Source of the DNA: a virus
Taxonomy: Duplodnaviria > Heunggongvirae > Uroviricota > Caudoviricetes
DNA: 14,615 nt
Strand: one strand, 5' to 3'
Virus record (IMG/VR): IMGVR_UViG_2534681763_000008
Part shown: piece after piece, positions 1 through 8,059 of the stretch
Position numbering within the stretch: the stretch's first letter is position 1
Layout: every line of letters begins with the position of its first letter
Notes under the pieces: model-generated
What the model saw: only the letters and a program-made list of their open reading frames with translations
What the model was told of the DNA's origin: nothing
The model's database searches: none
Position numbers and translations under genes: made by a program

Positions 1-708
1 ATAATTACGGCTCACCTGCTGGCTGCCGAACTGCTCCGAGTCCACCTGCACGCCGACCAGTGCCGTGTTCGGGTAGCACTGTTTCACATCGATAATTTCG
101 GTGTATGACGACCAGAGCGTTTTGTTCTGCAGCTGGTCTGTGGTGCTGTCCGGCGTCATCCTGCGCATCCGGATATTAAACGGGCGCGGCGGCAGGTTAT
201 CCACCACCACCGAGGCCAGATACTGTGAAGTGGTTTTGCCCTTAATGGTGATGTCTTTTTCTGTCACCCAGCCACCGTTACGTTGTATCTGAACCAGCAG
301 GCGGACTTCCGATGGATTCCTGTCCCCCTTTGAGGTGGTTTCCACCAGTGCCTGCACGCCGAAAGTAAAACGCAGACGGTCGATGTTTGCAGACGTGATG
401 GTCCGGGTGATCGGCGTGTCATATTTCACTTCTGTACCGAGCACCGTCTCGGAGCCGGAGGATTCAAATCCCTCCGGCGGTGTCTGCTCCTGCTCACCGG
501 CCCGGAACACCACCGTGACGCCGGATATATTGGTATTCCCCTCACTGTCCAGCACCGGCGTACTGTTCAGCAGCACGCTTTTTAATCCATCCACCGGACC
601 TTCAATCGGCCCTTCACTGATGGCATCGATCACACTCAGCAGCTGCGTGGACTTCAGGTTATCCTTCGCTTCGCGCGGGGTATGCCCCTTACTGCTGCCT
701 TTACCCAT
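1..708 (-). CDS. J: Tail tip / host-specificity protein J, N-terminal 236 codons; 5' end of gene only, continues past window start
   Basis: Minus-strand ATG at 708..706 with GGAG 8 nt upstream; frame open to position 1 (708 nt = 236 codons). Translation begins MGKGSSKGHTPREAKDNLKSTQLLSVIDAISEGPIEGPVDGLKSVLLNSTPVLD, which I recognise as the lambda gpJ N-terminus. Not in the ORF track because there is no stop in the window. Confidence 0.85.
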   Translation of the reverse strand, partial: MGKGSSKGHTPREAKDNLKSTQLLSVIDAISEGPIEGPVDGLKSVLLNSTPVLDSEGNTNISGVTVVFRAGEQEQTPPEGFESSGSETVLGTEVKYDTPITRTITSANIDRLRFTFGVQALVETTSKGDRNPSEVRLLVQIQRNGGWVTEKDITIKGKTTSQYLASVVVDNLPPRPFNIRMRRMTPDSTTDQLQNKTLWSSYTEIIDVKQCYPNTALVGVQVDSEQFGSQQVSRNY

Positions 709-730
709 TCGTCATGCTCCATAAACGACA

Positions 731-750
731 AAACCGCCCGGAGGCGGTTT
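731..750 (-). terminator. Stem-loop in the I-J intergenic gap (AAACCGCC-CGGA-GGCGGTTT), T-rich tail on the minus strand; possible weak intrinsic terminator or RNA stabiliser
   Basis: Perfect 8-bp inverted repeat with 4-nt loop seen directly; on the minus strand it is followed by TGTCGTTTAT. Sits between I stop (771..769) and J start (708). Confidence 0.25.
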
Positions 751-768
751 CACATAAAACATTTTGCA

Positions 769-1411
769 TCAGCGACCAATCACCACAACCTGACCACCGT
801 CCCCTTCGTCTGCCGTGCTGATCTCCTGAGAAACCACCCGTGACCCCACGCGCATTTCACCGTACAGAACAGGCAGAACATTGCCCTGGGCAACCATGTT
901 ATCCAGTGAGGAAAAATAGGTGTTCTGTTTGCCGTTATCTGTACTGGCTGCCGTGGACGTCCTGGCTTTCGGTGCCAGCATCTGCGCCACACCGCCCAGG
1001 ATCATACTGGCACCGAGAGAAAACAGCAGATTACTCGCCATAATTCCTACCCACAGGGTTCCACCATGCCACCGCCATAACAGCCGCCCCCAGCACAGCC
1101 TGAAATACACCGCCACTTTTAGCTCCCGCCAGACGCGGCACGATATGGATCACGGCACCATTTGCCAGCGGCTCATTAAGACGGGCAGATAATTCGGTTT
1201 CACCTGCATCACGCCCGGCAATGCGCACCTGATACCAGCCGTCGCTCAGCTTCTGACGAAACGCCGGGATCTGTGTGGCCAGCGCCCGGATGGCTTCGGC
1301 CCCCGTTTTCACACGAAGGTCGATGCGGCGGCCAAATCGTTGCAAATCCCCGTAAAGGCAGATGCGTGCCATGCCCGGTGACGCCAGAGGGAGTGTGTGC
1401 GTCGCTGCCAT
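769..1411 (-). pseudogene. I: Tail assembly protein I homolog, split into two overlapping ORFs (1031..1411 and 769..1116) by a frameshift
   Basis: N-terminal ORF starts MAATHTLPLASPGMARICLYGDLQRFGRRIDLRVKTGAEAIRALATQ; C-terminal ORF ends LFSLGASMILGGVAQMLAPKA...GEMRVGSRVVSQEISTADEGDGGQVVVIGR. Both match lambda gpI as I recall it. End coordinates 1411 and 1116 are in different frames; the frame change falls near the GGG run at about 1050..1054. Confidence 0.75.
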
Positions 1412-2052
1412 TTGTCGGTATACCTCTCTCGTTTGCTCAGTTGTTCAGGAATATGGTGCAGCAGCTCGCCGTCACCACAGTAAATGGCGGCATGATTCGG
1501 CACCGATGAACCAAAACAGCACAGCAGCACATCGCCCGGCTGCGCCGCTGACAACGGCACCTGATACAGCCCTGTGGCCTCCAGATTATCCAGATAGAGA
1601 TTCTGACCGTGACGCCACCAGTCATCCCCGCGATGAAAATCCGGCATCTCAATCCCCGCCAGATGATAAGCATCCCGGAACAGCGTGTAACAGTCCGTCA
1701 CCCCGTGCTCAAAGCGCCGCCCGGTGAGATGCGGCACACAGCGGAATTTATGAATCGTCCCCCGGCAGACCAGCCACCACGGCAAATCACTCTGCACCTG
1801 CAGCCGCCGGTCGGCCTCACTCAGCCAGGGCAGACCACCGGGGTGGCTGTGGACCAGCGCCACAATCTCACCCTGCATTTCTGCCTGCAGCCAGTCCTCC
1901 GGCGACATCCGGAAATACGCCTCCGGCTCACCGGAGATATTCACGCAGGGAAAATATCTTTCCCCCTCCGGCGTTCTCACCACGAAGCCGCACGACTCCG
2001 CTGGCGCACATCGCCGGGCGTGCGCCAGAATCGCTGATTCTGTCTGTGTCAT
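1309..2052 (-). CDS. K: Tail assembly protein K (JAMM/MPN metalloprotease motif plus NlpC/P60-like C-terminal region)
   Basis: ORF 1309..2127; preferred start is the internal ATG at 2052..2050 (MTQTESAILAH...), just after the L stop. JAMM motif HSHPGGLPWLSEAD seen in the translation. Overlaps the I start by 103 nt. The lambda annotation, as I recall, uses a later Met (here about 1908) giving 199 aa. Confidence 0.85.
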   Translation of the reverse strand: MTQTESAILAHARRCAPAESCGFVVRTPEGERYFPCVNISGEPEAYFRMSPEDWLQAEMQGEIVALVHSHPGGLPWLSEADRRLQVQSDLPWWLVCRGTIHKFRCVPHLTGRRFEHGVTDCYTLFRDAYHLAGIEMPDFHRGDDWWRHGQNLYLDNLEATGLYQVPLSAAQPGDVLLCCFGSSVPNHAAIYCGDGELLHHIPEQLSKRERYTDKWQRRTHSLWRHRAWHASAFTGICNDLAAASTFV

Positions 2053-2056
2053 GGGA

Positions 2057-2752
2057 TTACTGCGAAAGTTTGTTAATGGAAAGGAAGCCGCCAAAGTTGC
2101 CGACGTTATTGCGAAACTTACAGCCACTCAGGCATTTGCTGCATTTATCCTTCGTGATATCGGACGTCGGCTGGTCATATTCATCCGCGACAGCCGGACC
2201 GCTATAACCGCACTCATCACCGCGATAGGTCCAGGTGCAGGTGTTGGCCAGCATGATACGTCCCGGAAAAACAGCGCCATCCGTTTCCGTCGGCGTGGAC
2301 AGTACAAAGGAGGCACTGACCGCGCTCAGTTCGCTGCACTGCTCGATGCGCCAGCGGCTGATCACCTCCTGCTCCGGATCGGCTCGCTGTTTCCGTTGAC
2401 GAAGTTCACCGCATCCAGAAAACGGGCGTAAACCTTACGCCGACCACCGTTCCGCCGACCAGACTCTGCAGTCTTCCGCCATCCCGGTGACCATGCCGTA
2501 CAGGTTAGAAACCGTCAGCGTCGGACGGGCAGCACTGCCCTTACCGTTCAGTTCAAATCCCGTCCCCTGAATGGGGTATGCCTGATACTGCCGCCCCTGC
2601 CAGGTGACCGGCTCACCTTTTTCGTTCTGCTCATTACAGAAAAAATAACGTTCACCACCGACCTCTGTCAGATCGATTTCCCAGAGCACCACCTGGGCTG
2701 ACTGAGTAAGGCGTGTCGTCTCATGATGTGTTTCCTGTGGAATATCCTGCAT
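2057..2752 (-). pseudogene. L: Minor tail protein L homolog, disrupted: two ORFs (2435..2752 and 2057..2365) separated by a region readable only by changing frame twice
   Basis: N-terminal ORF MQDIPQETHHETTRLTQSAQVVLWEIDLTEVGGERYFFCNEQNEKGEPVTWQGRQYQ... and C-terminal ORF ISRWRIEQCSELSAVSASFVLSTPTETDGAVFPGRIMLANTCTWTYRGDECGYSGP...FLSINKLSQ match lambda gpL. Between them QSLVGGTVV and RKVYARFLDAVNFVNGNS are encoded in the other two frames. In-frame TAA at 2437..2435. Confidence 0.8.
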
Positions 2753-2761
2753 CAGGGCCTC

Positions 2762-3091
2762 CTATGCCACGACCTGTTCAAAATCTGCCGTTATGGTTAC
2801 CCACAGCGCCCCCACGCTTGCCGACCATTTACGACAAACCACCCTGATCGGCTTCCAGTCATAAGGTGGCGTCCACTGAAATGCGCGGACGCCACCGTGC
2901 CGTTCCAGAAAGGCTTTCAAAGATGGGTGTTCACATTTACGAACACGTATCGTCACGCTGTAAGTCGACAACTGGTTATTCAGTCCCGCCGCACGACGCT
3001 GTTCATAACCATCGCCCAGCTTCACTGTCACCACTTTCGGCTCTGATACCACATTCATATCCGGGCGCACTTTCCAGTGAAACGTCTCCAT
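2762..3091 (-). CDS. M: Minor tail protein M
   Basis: 109 aa, METFHWKVRPDMNVVSEPKVVTVKLGDGYEQRRAAGLNNQLSTYSV...FEQVVA; same length and pattern as lambda gpM. Start ATG shares its A with the H stop (TAATG at 3093..3089). Confidence 0.9.
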   Translation of the reverse strand: METFHWKVRPDMNVVSEPKVVTVKLGDGYEQRRAAGLNNQLSTYSVTIRVRKCEHPSLKAFLERHGGVRAFQWTPPYDWKPIRVVCRKWSASVGALWVTITADFEQVVA

Positions 3092-6000
3092 TACCGATAT
3101 GCTCCACTTAACCGACCACCATCACGGGCCTGCTGTTGCATAAAGTCCGCTGCCGCTTTTTTCCCAAGGTCATAAACCACCTTCAGGGCAGCCGGACCTA
3201 TCTGCCCGTTCGTGCCATCGTTATTGATCTCGATGTTGTACTGCGGGGCAAACATCGCCATACCTGAACCACCAATATCCGCCACAACCCCCAGCTTACC
3301 GTCAGCACCACGACGCAGTGGCAGAATGGCTTCAGGTCCAGCTTCCCCCATCACACCCGCGCCTTTTGCAAAAGCAAAAAACGTCGGACGGTTAACCACC
3401 GTGCCACTGTAGCGACTCAAATCAGCCGACTGATAAACACCGCCATCAGCATTGGCTACAAAATCAAAAGGCAGCGCGGAAGCAATACCTTTTACCGCTT
3501 TCATTAAAGCTATCTGAGCCATGATTCTGGACATATCTGACAGCACAGAAGAGGTGAAGGATTTGAAATTGAGTTTGCCTGTAGTACAGAATGTCGCCAG
3601 CCAGTCACTCATGCTACTGAACGCAGACGTGAACAACTGTTCCACTGTCCCGGCTGTGTTATCCGCTTTCTCAGTGACATTCTGGAGTGCACGCAGGACT
3701 CCGTTTTTCCAGTCACCCTGAGCAATTTCAAGCTGTTGCCAATAACGGCGATTCTCATTCAGTTGTCGGTTCAGGCTCTCCGTCAGCGCCTGCTCGGCCT
3801 TTCTGTAGTCATCCGTGTTATATGTTCCTTTCTGCTCACTATCCCGCCTCAACTGCTCCAGCTGTTGCTGGTATTTCTGGCGAAGACTCAGTTGTACCTG
3901 ATATCGCTGCCGCTGCTGATCACCCATACCCACCGTGGCGATATCCAGGTCATGTTGCTGGCGCTGAGCGCGCTCTTCTTCAGCCAGTTGACTGGTCAGC
4001 TGAATTGTTTTTTTCTTCAGATCGTTGAGTGCCGTCTGTTTCTGAAGCTCCTGCTGTTTTACATCCAGCAGCGTCAGTGCCTGAATCAGTTCATCTTTAC
4101 GGGCCAGCACACTCTTTTCATCTGCCGTCAGTTTTTTCCCGTCCAGATCGCTGATGCGCTGCTGCAGAGCCAGAAGCTGTTTATGCGCTTCTGTCATCCT
4201 GTCAGTGGCAATGCCTGCTGACTGTCTTGCAGCAGCAATCTGTCCTTCCACCTGTGCCTGTTGCTGACTGTACTGCAGCAATAACCGGGTGGCCTCATCA
4301 TTACGGGTTTCGCGTGTTTTTTTCTTACCGGATGCCAGGGCTTTCTCGTAACGTTCATTTTCACGTTGTATCGCCGCATCCCTGACAGCCTGATCGGCGT
4401 ACTGCATGGCATTAATACGCGCAATTTCACGCTGATGTCGTGCTGCTTCCGTTTCATTCATCCGGTTCAGTGCAGCATTTTCAGCATTACGGCGTTTCTG
4501 TTGCTCCTGATAATTCCGCTCTGCCTGCTCTTTTGCATCCTGCAAATCCTTCTGGCGTTTTTTCTCCTGAAGCTCGTTAAGACGCTGCTGATCGTACTCA
4601 ACCTGAGAAGATGATGCCGTCCAGGGGAGTCTTTTCGCCCGCGACACTTTCTCCTGTAAAGCGGAAATCTGTTCATCCAGCGAGTCTTCACGACCAATAT
4701 TCATGGCCGCATCCCAGAAACGACTCCATAAATCAGACAGATACTTCAGCGTACTGCCCAGCGCATTGAGGTTATTATCAATATCCGCAGTACGCCGACC
4801 GGTTTCCTCTGCCAGTGCAGACATGGCTATCCGTGCCGCATCACTGGACCGCCCCTGTTCCCCAAGGACGCGTATCTGCTCAAGCTGAGTGGCAGTAAGA
4901 AAATGCAGCTCATTGTCCAGAGCCTTCGCGGCATTTACAGGATCATCCTTCAGCCGCTTAAACTGACTTATGGTATCGCTGACCGACTGGCCAACCGATC
5001 GCTCCATCTGTGCGGCAGCTCTCGCCACCATACCGATATCGTTTCCACGAAATGCACCACTCCCCACCACCTGAGCCAGCGCACCGGCTGCAGCATGTTG
5101 CGTGATACCATTCCCGGAAATAGCACGACTGAGCGTCCACAGCTGCCCGGCAGTGACTCCGGCATAATGCCCCGTCAGCGACAACTGGCGGTTAAATTCT
5201 TCCCCCTCCTTCTGACCGTCATACCAGGCTTTACCCAGACCATAGACGGCCGCGGCAATACCGCCAATAACCCCGCCCAGCATCATGCCTTTCGGTGACA
5301 TCAGTGTGTCTATCCATCCGGCACGGTTAGCCAGCGTTATCCCGGATCCCCTCAGCGCACCTAAATTGCCGCGAGCCAGTTCACCTATCAGAACGCCTAT
5401 CTCCTGGCGGGCCGCTGCACTTTTCAGACCCAGCGAATGCGTGGCTTTTCCTGCCTGCTCCATTTTGCGGATATACACTTCTGCAGCACTGCTTACCCCC
5501 AGCTGGGCAGCCTTAGCACGAAGCAACTCAGAAGAAGAAAGATTCTGGCGGGTTGCCTGCTCTTTAAGCTGACGGATAAACGCCACTTTCTGTCGGGTAG
5601 CCTCTTCCTCAGCCTGTGTAAGAACACGGGTTTTCGCCGTAACCTCAGAAATCAGCGCCAGATAATCCTGCTGACCAATCCCGCCACTGTTTCTGGCCTG
5701 TCGGATCTGCTGCTGAATACGCTGTAATTCCTGCAGCCCCGCACTGGCCTGTTTCACACTGTCAATCTGACGATAAAACGCAGCAGCCGCTTTATCCTGA
5801 GCCTCCGCCAGAGCCATGGCCTGCGCCTGTTCATCGCGCATTTTCTGGCTCAGCGCCTCCATGCGCTGGCGGGTTTTCTCCACCTCGCGGGCCATGCGTT
5901 CATGAGCCTGTGCGTTCTTCTCCACCGTCTGCGCATGGACGGAGGCGGCTGTTGCAGCCGAAGAAGCCGCCTGCGTTGTCTGCCGGGCGGCCTGAGTCTG

Positions 6001-6147
6001 ACGCTCCATAAAACGCTGCATACGGGCAGAAGACCGTTCTGCATCGCTGGCGGCACCATTCAGAAGGTTTTTGATACGGGGAATTTCATTTTTAAACTCT
6101 GCCGCATCAATCCCCAAATCAATGACCAGGTTGGCTATCTGGTCCAT
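3091..6147 (-). CDS. H: Tail tape measure protein (lambda gpH-like C-terminus)
   Basis: ORF 3091..6177; preferred start ATG at 6147..6145 (MDQIANLVIDLG...) with GGAGGT 7 nt upstream. Long Q/E/R/A-rich coiled-coil-like middle, hydrophobic segment MMLGGVIGGIAAAVYGL, C-terminus INNDGTNGQIGPAALKVVYDL...DGGRLSG as in lambda gpH. About 1018 aa. Confidence 0.9.
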   Translation of the reverse strand: MDQIANLVIDLGIDAAEFKNEIPRIKNLLNGAASDAERSSARMQRFMERQTQAARQTTQAASSAATAASVHAQTVEKNAQAHERMAREVEKTRQRMEALSQKMRDEQAQAMALAEAQDKAAAAFYRQIDSVKQASAGLQELQRIQQQIRQARNSGGIGQQDYLALISEVTAKTRVLTQAEEEATRQKVAFIRQLKEQATRQNLSSSELLRAKAAQLGVSSAAEVYIRKMEQAGKATHSLGLKSAAARQEIGVLIGELARGNLGALRGSGITLANRAGWIDTLMSPKGMMLGGVIGGIAAAVYGLGKAWYDGQKEGEEFNRQLSLTGHYAGVTAGQLWTLSRAISGNGITQHAAAGALAQVVGSGAFRGNDIGMVARAAAQMERSVGQSVSDTISQFKRLKDDPVNAAKALDNELHFLTATQLEQIRVLGEQGRSSDAARIAMSALAEETGRRTADIDNNLNALGSTLKYLSDLWSRFWDAAMNIGREDSLDEQISALQEKVSRAKRLPWTASSSQVEYDQQRLNELQEKKRQKDLQDAKEQAERNYQEQQKRRNAENAALNRMNETEAARHQREIARINAMQYADQAVRDAAIQRENERYEKALASGKKKTRETRNDEATRLLLQYSQQQAQVEGQIAAARQSAGIATDRMTEAHKQLLALQQRISDLDGKKLTADEKSVLARKDELIQALTLLDVKQQELQKQTALNDLKKKTIQLTSQLAEEERAQRQQHDLDIATVGMGDQQRQRYQVQLSLRQKYQQQLEQLRRDSEQKGTYNTDDYRKAEQALTESLNRQLNENRRYWQQLEIAQGDWKNGVLRALQNVTEKADNTAGTVEQLFTSAFSSMSDWLATFCTTGKLNFKSFTSSVLSDMSRIMAQIALMKAVKGIASALPFDFVANADGGVYQSADLSRYSGTVVNRPTFFAFAKGAGVMGEAGPEAILPLRRGADGKLGVVADIGGSGMAMFAPQYNIEINNDGTNGQIGPAALKVVYDLGKKAAADFMQQQARDGGRLSGAYR

Positions 6148-6448
6148 AACGCACACCTCCGGAAATACCTTCTCCAAGATGCATCAGTTCTTCGTCCGTT
6201 CGCTCCGGTATCCCGTTCTCTTCCGGTAAAAGGCTGAAATCAGCCACCGCAGCATCACTGCTGCCGGACACCATTCTCACGATCAATGCCTTCAGCGAGG
6301 CAAACTGCGCATCCATCCACACATCACTGAAGCTCTGCATCCGGAAATAATCGCCCCACTCACCAAGCTCAGTGGCCGACATTTCCGACAGCATCCGCCG
6401 CCAGTCTGCCCGCCGGAACTCCCGGGCAAGCCGCATGACAAACTGCAT
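6119..6448 (-). CDS. T: T portion of tail assembly chaperone G-T (expected to be made as a G-T fusion by -1 frameshifting)
   Basis: ORF in the -1 frame relative to G, immediately downstream. The T frame is open upstream of its ATG back to 6481, overlapping the last 8 codons of G. Gene order V-G-T-H as in lambda. Confidence 0.75.
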   Translation of the reverse strand: MQFVMRLAREFRRADWRRMLSEMSATELGEWGDYFRMQSFSDVWMDAQFASLKALIVRMVSGSSDAAVADFSLLPEENGIPERTDEELMHLGEGISGGVRYGPDSQPGH

Positions 6449-6456
6449 TTCCCGCG

Positions 6457-6843
6457 TCAGGACTTTTCCGGCGTCAGCGCCTCATGCTCATCATCCCCGG
6501 CATTATCAATGGCCCCCATACCGCTCAGCGACAGAACCATCTCCGCCCCCGCACCCAGGGCATCATACGACCATGTTGTAATAACGGATGCGCAAAGCGT
6601 CTCTACATCCTTAGACTGATCCGCATTCCACAGTGAGCGGGAAACCAGCCAGGCATTGATATCCATCCCCATCCGCAGAAAAGCAATCTGTCGTTCAGCC
6701 TCCGGCAGTTCTCCCTCCCCGGCATCAAACTTTGCCGTTCGCTGCTGAACAAACGCCAGATATTCAATTCTCTGCAGCCCGGACAGCTCACTGAGCACCA
6801 CGGACTGTTTTTCATAATTAAACGTGCCCTGTTTCAGAAACAT
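6457..6843 (-). CDS. G: Tail assembly chaperone G
   Basis: ORF 6457..6885; preferred start is the second of two tandem ATGs (6846 and 6843), giving MFLKQGTFNYEKQSVVLSELSGLQRIEYLA..., like lambda gpG MFLK...LSELSALQRIEHLA. GGTGGAG upstream. Confidence 0.85.
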   Translation of the reverse strand: MFLKQGTFNYEKQSVVLSELSGLQRIEYLAFVQQRTAKFDAGEGELPEAERQIAFLRMGMDINAWLVSRSLWNADQSKDVETLCASVITTWSYDALGAGAEMVLSLSGMGAIDNAGDDEHEALTPEKS

Positions 6844-6859
6844 CATGTTCTCCACCTGC

Positions 6860-6883
6860 AAAAAAGCCCCGGATAACCGGGGC
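6860..6883 (-). terminator. Intrinsic-terminator-like hairpin between V and G: GCCCCGG-TTAT-CCGGGGC followed by TTTTTT on the minus strand
   Basis: Perfect 7-bp GC stem (6866..6872 / 6877..6883) with 4-nt loop and a 6-nt T run (6865..6860) on the transcribed strand, 14 nt before the G start region. Confidence 0.5.
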
Positions 6884-6903
6884 AAATGATGAGTATCGTC
6901 CTG

Positions 6904-7647
6904 TTAACCTGCGGCGCTGACAGCCACCGTAGCCACTGCCACAAAATCGCCGTCAGAAGTCATGCCCACAATGCTGACACTGCCCTGCTTCACGCCTTTC
7001 ACCGTGGCCACAAGCCCGTTCAGGGTCACCGTGGCAGTCTGTGGATCTGTCGAATGCACACTGATCGCTTTGTCACTGGCTCCGTCAGGTTTTACTGTAA
7101 AGGTCAGCGTGGTGGTTGCTCCCACTTTTACACTGGCAGATGCCGGTGCCACCGTCAGCCCGGTAACGCCCACGGTTTCAGTGCCTTCCTCTGCCAGATA
7201 CGGACGCCCCACACCGCTGATTTTCACGGTGCGGGTCATCACGTCTTTTGAGGCAATGGTTTTACCCAGTGAACTCAGCCAGCCACGGAAAACATCAACA
7301 GTACCGTTGGGATATTTGATACGAAACGCGCAGACTTCACCGGAGTCGAACAACTGAACCAGTTTTTTCTGCCCGCTGTCCCCCGGACGCCAGGCCAGCG
7401 TCGCCGAAGTATCACCGACGGATTTCTGCCCCTGGGTTGTCGTTTTCCAGTCTGCATCTTCATCATCGAGATAAGTGTCATCTTCTGCATCAGCGGTCAT
7501 TTCGCCAGGTTGCAGATCCTTCACCATCGCAAGACGCAACCAGTCAGTGTCCGACAAAGGGTTCGCAAACGCATCGCCGTTGCCGGTATACATCCAGAAC
7601 GTCGTTCCCGCACCTTTCGTTTTTGCCAGTGGATTTGGTGTGGTCAT
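6904..7647 (-). CDS. V: Major tail protein V, with C-terminal Ig-like region
   Basis: ORF 6904..7722; preferred start ATG 7647..7645 (MTTPNPLAKTKGAGTTFWMYTGNGDAFANPLSDTDWLRLAMVKDLQPGEMTA...) with AGGAGG upstream; matches lambda gpV. 247 aa. Confidence 0.9.
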   Translation of the reverse strand: MTTPNPLAKTKGAGTTFWMYTGNGDAFANPLSDTDWLRLAMVKDLQPGEMTADAEDDTYLDDEDADWKTTTQGQKSVGDTSATLAWRPGDSGQKKLVQLFDSGEVCAFRIKYPNGTVDVFRGWLSSLGKTIASKDVMTRTVKISGVGRPYLAEEGTETVGVTGLTVAPASASVKVGATTTLTFTVKPDGASDKAISVHSTDPQTATVTLNGLVATVKGVKQGSVSIVGMTSDGDFVAVATVAVSAAG

Positions 7648-7657
7648 TACCACCTCC

Positions 7658-8059
7658 TTAATTCGTGTACGTGATCTGGTACGTGATTTCCGCCATCGCC
7701 CAGGTGGCCATCTCATTATCACGTTGATAGTTAAAACCGAGTGGGATCAGGGTGTCGATGAGTCCGGAAAGTGCCGGTATATCATTCAGGGCCGGGAAAA
7801 TGGTGCTCTCCATCCACATATCCAGCTCTGAATCCGGTGCCTGTGCCCGGATGAAGACAGCAATATGCAGAACAGCCTGCCAGTCATCTTCATCCGTCAT
7901 TTTTCCGGTGTACTGAGCATCACTCAGCCACACTGCCACGGCAGGCAGTTCCTGCGCATCAACAAATGCCGGAAGCCCGTCAAAAAACGTGGCGCTGTCT
8001 CCACACTGTTTCCGAAGGCGTGCTAGTACGACCTGGCGGATTTGTGTATGTCGGTTCAT
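7658..8059 (-). CDS. U: Minor tail protein U (tail terminator)
   Basis: ORF 7658..8071; MNRHTQIRQVVLARL...ATFFDGLPAFVDAQELPAVAVWLSDAQYTG...DSELDMWMEST...IPALSGLIDT matches lambda gpU. Preferred start ATG 8059..8057 overlaps the Z stop (ATGA); alternative start at 8071. Confidence 0.85.
   Translation of the reverse strand: MNRHTQIRQVVLARLRKQCGDSATFFDGLPAFVDAQELPAVAVWLSDAQYTGKMTDEDDWQAVLHIAVFIRAQAPDSELDMWMESTIFPALNDIPALSGLIDTLIPLGFNYQRDNEMATWAMAEITYQITYTN

Follow-up and report, generated by a model that had tools for sequence, protein, structure and literature searches.

Three single-base gaps in gene L of an Escherichia coli prophage contig: a probable merged consensus of two prophage copies rather than a pseudogene

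The minor tail protein gene L in the stretch of DNA analyzed here (the window; 14,615 bp, corresponding to one whole contig of a draft Escherichia coli genome) is interrupted by three missing bases. Judging by comparison with related prophages, these gaps are very probably an artefact of a short-read draft, in which paralogous prophage copies collapsed into one consensus, and not the trace of a biological pseudogene. This verdict is based on the chimeric alternation of alleles in the affected region and the point at which that alternation sets in, on all three gaps falling at sites that vary between the paralogs, on the lack of any private substitution, on both parental genes being intact, on the uniqueness of the lesions, and on the method by which the genome was assembled.

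By exact-protein match, the window was identified as contig AQEC01000066.1 of assembly GCA_000356065.2, the draft genome of E. coli 2729250. In Table S1 of PMC5469772, this strain appears as a CS5+CS6 enterotoxigenic E. coli (ETEC) of ST443 from Bangladesh (run SRR446724), and the same table, together with the methods of that study, gives Illumina HiSeq 2000 sequencing with 100-bp reads and the Celera Assembler for its genome. The contig record lists three samples with the contig, and the exact-protein look-up returned one contig under one accession. Both termini lie in repeats, with an IS66-family element in the terminase gene at one end and gene J at the other. On the basis of the open reading frame (ORF) list, Pfam matches on the called genes, and the annotation of the ETEC-2265 prophage, the minus strand carries a lambdoid head-tail module, in which the terminase fragment is followed by the portal gene, a ClpP-protease/capsid fusion gene, head-tail joining genes, the genes Z, U, V, G, T, and H (3091 to 6147), M, L, and finally K, I, and the start of J. 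The features relevant here are as follows:

14309 to 14615, minus strand: end of the IS66-family element (ISCro1-like), inside the large terminase gene; phage matches begin at query base 308
13025 to 14305, minus strand: large terminase gene, 3' fragment, next to the IS66 end
2522 to 14308, minus strand: single-copy part (5' L, M, H, T, G, V, U, Z, head genes, portal, and terminase 3' fragment), which follows copy 1 (see below) only
2762 to 3091, minus strand: M, tail module
2057 to 2752, minus strand: L (lambda gpL homolog, minor tail protein L) as recorded, 696 nt versus 699 nt in intact genes
2435 to 2752, minus strand: N-terminal L ORF of 105 aa, a called gene (ENA50376.1) ending in CRVWSAERWSA before the stop codon
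2057 to 2365, minus strand: C-terminal L ORF of 102 aa, a called gene with an internal GTG start
1012 to 1070, minus strand: second frameshift, in tail assembly gene I, at a chimeric join

ETEC relatives that carry the IS66-family element match the contig from query base 1. The same insertion in the terminase gene (annotated in the relatives as tnpA, tnpB, and transposase) is found in ETEC-2265, 120899, 103605, 204446, and 504237, all of which are complete genomes of related ETEC strains. With its large terminase gene interrupted by this element, the prophage is truly defective, regardless of what the lesions in L and I represent.

That the interrupted gene is a homolog of lambda gpL, as stated in the original prediction, was confirmed by precomputed matches to PF05100 (Phage_tail_L) on both of its ORFs and by the gene order M-L-K-I-J, which it shares with lambda; once the three bases are restored, the length is equal as well. 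L sits between M and K, the order H-M-L-K-I-J being the same in the window and in annotated relatives, and its DNA is 97 to 98% identical to genes annotated as "phage minor tail protein L." Whereas lambda gpL is undivided, the record holds no single L ORF of about 232 codons and splits the gene into 105 and 102 aa, a split that, on the alignments presented below, we attribute with considerable confidence to assembly. At the level of the sequence, every statement of the prediction held up. The two L ORFs do share one frame (2752 − 2365 = 387 = 3 × 129), and a three-frame translation of 2366 to 2500 showed the gpL peptide passing from frame A to frame B, then to frame C, and back to frame A: frame A reads YGMVTGMAED followed directly by CRVWSAERWSA and a stop, the second frame supplies LQSLVGGTVV, the third RRKVYARFLDAVNFVNGNS, and frame A is taken up again at ADPEQE. 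The TAA at 2437 to 2435 ends the first ORF, and the net change in length is indeed −3 nt (696 versus 699 in intact relatives). Alignments to four intact relatives, to ETEC-2265 across the whole contig, and to ten more L genes yielded exactly three gaps and placed the 1-nt losses at 2472/2471, 2442/2441, and 2384/2383, in agreement with the prediction; in terms of the relatives, one C of GAC-CTG, the A of GTC-AGG, and the C of GAC-GCC are missing. A minor amendment concerns the bases anticipated at the gaps: the closest relatives have GAC-CTG and GTC-AGG rather than the lambda-type ATG and CGG, the latter two being the alleles of a second, co-resident prophage copy.

The contig is not uniformly different from its relatives. 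Compared with the ETEC-2265 prophage (NZ_CP023346.1), the region from 2520 to 14615 contains two substitutions and no indels, while 1 to 2520 contains everything else: 76 substitutions, a complex indel in gene I, and the three gaps in L, which are the sole 1-nt indels of the entire contig. Likewise, several complete E. coli genomes match the upstream 12 kb at 99.98% identity, whereas the top match to 1 to 2520 among such genomes reaches 96.8%. Because the differences are confined to 1 to 2520 and the rest is nearly identical to ETEC-2265, general sequence noise can be excluded; poor sequence quality overall was accordingly ruled out, with only two substitutions in 12 kb and no further 1-nt indels relative to ETEC-2265.

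A search with gene I showed that related strains carry a second lambdoid prophage, located in 120899, for example, at 4.757 Mb; strains 120899, 602354, 103605, 204446, and E1779 all have this second copy (copy 2). Copy 2 of 120899 encodes a lambda-type gpL, whereas copy 1 is of the type of phages cdtI, mEp460, and Tritos. The L-K-I-J regions of the two prophages are 93 to 99% identical; M and the 5' part of L are much less alike, at 55 to 80% identity (55 to 65% in M). From a three-way alignment of the window and the two tail modules of 120899 (copy 1, L018; copy 2, L017), the copy-2 sequence thus being taken from related strains and not from 2729250 itself, we scored the informative columns:

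2522 to 3099, minus strand: 185 informative columns, of which 185 match copy 1, 0 match copy 2, and 0 match neither; no private substitutions
662 to 2521, minus strand: chimeric zone (3' L, K, I, and start of J) with 161 informative columns, of which 86 match copy 1, 72 match copy 2, and 3 match neither

Across the chimeric zone, the consensus switches between alleles 21 times without a single private substitution, and the three columns at odds with both copies are exactly those of the missing bases in L. The outcome was unchanged when four reference copies from three strains were used (adding copy 1 of ETEC-2265 and a copy-2-like 46-kb element of E1779); what remained unexplained then was confined to the gaps in L and to ten substitutions in J (313 to 661). 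The alternation starts abruptly, with the final copy-1-only informative site at 2522 and the first copy-2 allele at 2519, and this onset coincides with a jump in copy-1/copy-2 identity per 100 nt, a window equal to the read length, from 55 to 80% to 93 to 95%. Over most of 1 to 2500, the identity between the copies is at least 93% per 100 nt; K and I contain a few patches of 54 to 82% identity, where the consensus sides with either copy 1 or copy 2.

The three missing bases themselves also point to the paralogs, as each falls in a column at which the two copies differ:

2471 to 2472, minus strand: missing base 1; GA-CTG in the window, GACCTG in copy 1, and GATATG in copy 2 (column C versus T)
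2441 to 2442, minus strand: missing base 2; GTC-GG in the window, GTCAGG in copy 1, and GTCCGG in copy 2
2383 to 2384, minus strand: missing base 3; GCGA-GCC in the window, GCGACGCC in copy 1, and GTTATGCC in copy 2

At the third site, E1779 has an GTTAAGCC-type allele, with A. With variable columns making up 6.0 to 8.6% of the region, and with the two-base run at site 1 taken into account, the probability that three out of three gaps would land on copy-1/copy-2 variable columns by chance is approximately 2 × 10^-4 to 6 × 10^-4. The three positions are also polymorphic across 145 more L-bearing contigs from metagenomes and the Genome Taxonomy Database (GTDB), the base being there wherever the position is covered; at site 2, for instance, approximately 90 of these contigs have C, approximately 54 have A, and none lacks the base. 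Both parental L genes, that of copy 1 (e.g., NZ_CP023346.1, 1285391 to 1286089) and that of copy 2 (e.g., NZ_CP025916.1, 4756122 to 4756820), are intact and encode 232 aa, and L is annotated as full length in all close relatives.

These patterns are consistent with the following course of events. Like its close ETEC relatives, 2729250 would hold at least two lambdoid prophages with similar L-K-I-J regions; that this strain itself has both copies we infer from the copy-2 alleles in its contig. An overlap-layout-consensus assembler could keep the copies apart up to 2522 (minus strand), past which point the 100-bp reads of both would be pooled in one multiple alignment, with contributions from two prophages and, in J, probably from three. 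A vote taken per column or per variant block would then mix alleles of the two copies in a patchwork, and a gap might have been the outcome at three of the variable columns, with the loss of one base each time. The particular assembler step behind a gap call at a column with two or three alleles is likewise something we infer, and one site counts against a collapsed consensus here: site 2 is an isolated A/C mismatch, at which a simple majority vote should give A or C. Most likely, and as far as the aligned copies allow us to tell, both L genes are intact 232-codon genes in the real genome. The situation otherwise resembles collapsed-repeat errors in its near-identical copies, in its alternating alleles without private changes, in its onset at high identity, in a contig that ends in repeats (IS66 and gene J), and in frameshifts that occur in the merged zone only. 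Such errors usually appear as a mosaic of substitutions, whereas here three variable columns also became gaps.

As an alternative, the gene might have undergone genuine pseudogenization, the prophage having died through the IS66 insertion in its terminase gene and L having suffered three independent 1-nt deletions under relaxed selection. The insertion is common to relatives with complete genomes, which makes relaxed selection on L plausible, and E. coli assemblies often contain a disrupted L, the cause being a nonsense mutation, a 7-nt duplication, or a lone 1-nt deletion. However, the relatives with the same insertion, only two substitutions away over 12 kb, have kept an intact L; three deletions combined with zero private substitutions in 1.86 kb do not resemble the spectrum expected of neutral decay; and independent deletions would have had to hit paralog-variable columns three times out of three (P of 2 to 6 × 10^-4, as above). 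Moreover, the lesions are unique to this contig. Among approximately 15 billion proteins, an exact look-up found the 105-aa L ORF on one contig only. In 5,426 complete E. coli genomes, a 131-nt query covering 2365 to 2495 found no genome carrying any of the three deletions, the best match being 131/134. A 24-mer containing the second deletion had no matches in GTDB representatives or in metagenomes, while an adjacent conserved 24-mer from the window was found on 25 contigs (GTDB) and at least 120 contigs (metagenomes), all of which have the base. In short, none of the complete genomes, proteins, or 145 L-bearing contigs places one of the lesions in a relative or an independent assembly, and the case that the original prediction had named as refuting it, intact relatives sharing exactly this sequence, did not materialize either, as no relative has it. 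We consider pseudogenization improbable, and the claim that L was broken by three mutations is not supported, the region instead being a column-by-column mix of two paralogous prophage copies.

The other broken L genes deserve a closer description. The 102-aa C-terminal L product is also called on at least 85 other contigs, and we aligned eight of the ten contigs shown with this product (L007, L008, L010 to L012, and L014 to L016). As in the window, the same 102-aa ORF remains in these real E. coli L pseudogenes, and in all eight, L is broken by a differing upstream lesion, none of which is one of the window's three. Since different upstream breaks leave this same ORF, it arises as a nonspecific by-product whenever L is broken further upstream, and a shared ancestral pseudogene was ruled out, the 105-aa ORF being unique and the aligned 102-aa examples carrying other lesions upstream. 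An identical GAG-to-TAG nonsense codon (at about position 2990 of each locus) is shared by L007, L011, and L014, and the same 127-aa gene call is present in L009 and L013, which are outside the alignment (also at about position 2990). A 7-nt GTGAACT(T) duplication is common to L010 and L016, L015 has a GGA-to-TGA change, and L008 and L012 have one 1-nt deletion each, at different places. Thus, real-looking L pseudogenes carry a single lesion each and recur in independent E. coli assemblies, with several of the lesions themselves recurring, whereas the L gene in the window has three, unique and all at sites that differ between the paralogs.

The chimeric zone could also be a real recombinant, in which gene conversion between co-resident prophages created a true L-K-I-J mosaic and mutagenic heteroduplex repair dropped bases at three mismatches; such an event, itself very improbable, would leave a fine-grained true mosaic in which L and I are inactivated. 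Every allele in 662 to 2521 that is not a copy-1 allele is indeed a copy-2 allele, and mosaicism among a few lineages is also seen in natural L genes. However, 21 switches in 1.86 kb, some only 3 to 5 nt apart, are unlike homologous exchange, the mosaic is present in no complete genome (with the best match to 1 to 2520 at 96.8%, versus 99.98% elsewhere in the prophage), and we know of no repair pathway that removes exactly the mismatched base. Gene I provides a further argument. Its two copies differ by two compensating indels, of 1 nt and 5 nt, inside a patch of 54% identity, and the window combines the state of copy 1 at the first of them (A at 1060) with that of copy 2 at the second (CTGGC absent at 1050), so that the reading frame is shifted. 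At this join, the copies have only GGG in common, and a switch there can be made by a vote over columns but should not be made by homologous recombination. The resulting fragments of 93 and 90 aa (ENA50369.1 and ENA50367.1 in GenBank) occur on this contig only among approximately 15 billion proteins. The frameshift in gene I is therefore of the same artefact class as the lesions in L. A differently frameshifted gene I fragment of 93 aa (P0032), with the same out-of-frame GRNYGE tail before its stop, was found on a 1,175-bp NCBI contig, which hints that this hypervariable patch is often misassembled or broken.

Besides mutation, the original prediction had allowed for a stretch of low sequence quality. 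This came nearer to the truth in locating the problem in the sequence rather than in the phage, although low-quality base calls do not account for it, since each missing base sits at a site that varies between copy 1 and copy 2. Local errors of this kind, that is, platform indel errors in a thinly covered stretch without any involvement of paralogs, would fit three same-direction indels within 90 bp, which do resemble a bad stretch. Yet the data are Illumina reads, with a low indel rate, the contig is without further 1-nt indels, only one of the three sites is a two-base run, and random errors would not all land on paralog-variable columns, which leaves this possibility extremely improbable. 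Homopolymer or platform errors were ruled out, given the Illumina data and two of three sites lying outside runs. Finally, programmed translational recoding across the three shifts, with only the net length change of −3 nt to recommend it, was rejected on sequence grounds, as it needs three successive +1 shifts at non-slippery sites (GAC/TGC, GTC/GGC, and CGA/GCC, with no slippery heptamer at any of them) and passage beyond an in-frame TAA, and all relatives encode the peptide in one frame.

With a collapsed consensus as the most probable origin of the gaps, the locus offers no new biology, L being an unremarkable homolog of lambda gpL in a lambdoid tail module of the usual kind. What it does illustrate is that, in short-read overlap-consensus drafts of E. 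coli strains with multiple lambdoid prophages, the tail genes common to these prophages may merge into a chimeric consensus, whose frameshifts (here in L and I, as in ENA50376.1, ENA50369.1, and ENA50367.1) mimic prophage decay. Such contigs would inflate counts of pseudogenes, "defective prophages," and recombination mosaics. A comparison with the paralogous copies in a finished close relative separates an artefact of this kind from the real, single-hit lesions in L.

Three additional observations concern neighboring or related sequences. First, the ten substitutions in J (313 to 661, minus strand) that match neither copy are found in other E. coli J genes, with a best match of 98.9%, which suggests that a third co-resident copy of J fed the consensus near the end of the contig. 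Second, the copy-2-like element of E1779 (L164; NZ_LR883007.1, listed as "plasmid 2" of E. coli L5_E1779, an ETEC lineage-5 reference strain) is a circular, lambda-type prophage sequence of 46,243 bp and may represent an excised or replicating phage genome; RefSeq marks its H, K, and J genes as frameshifted, flags that may reflect residual long-read indel errors. Third, the lambda-type L 24-mer was also present in L139 to L163 (e.g., L141, L151, and L158), low-coverage contigs of approximately 48.4 to 48.5 kb or small fragments, within genomes of unrelated taxa including Pseudomonas, Shewanella, Neobacillus, Oceanobacillus, Bradyrhizobium, and Kitasatospora; these matches look like phage lambda control or ligation DNA contaminating the assemblies.
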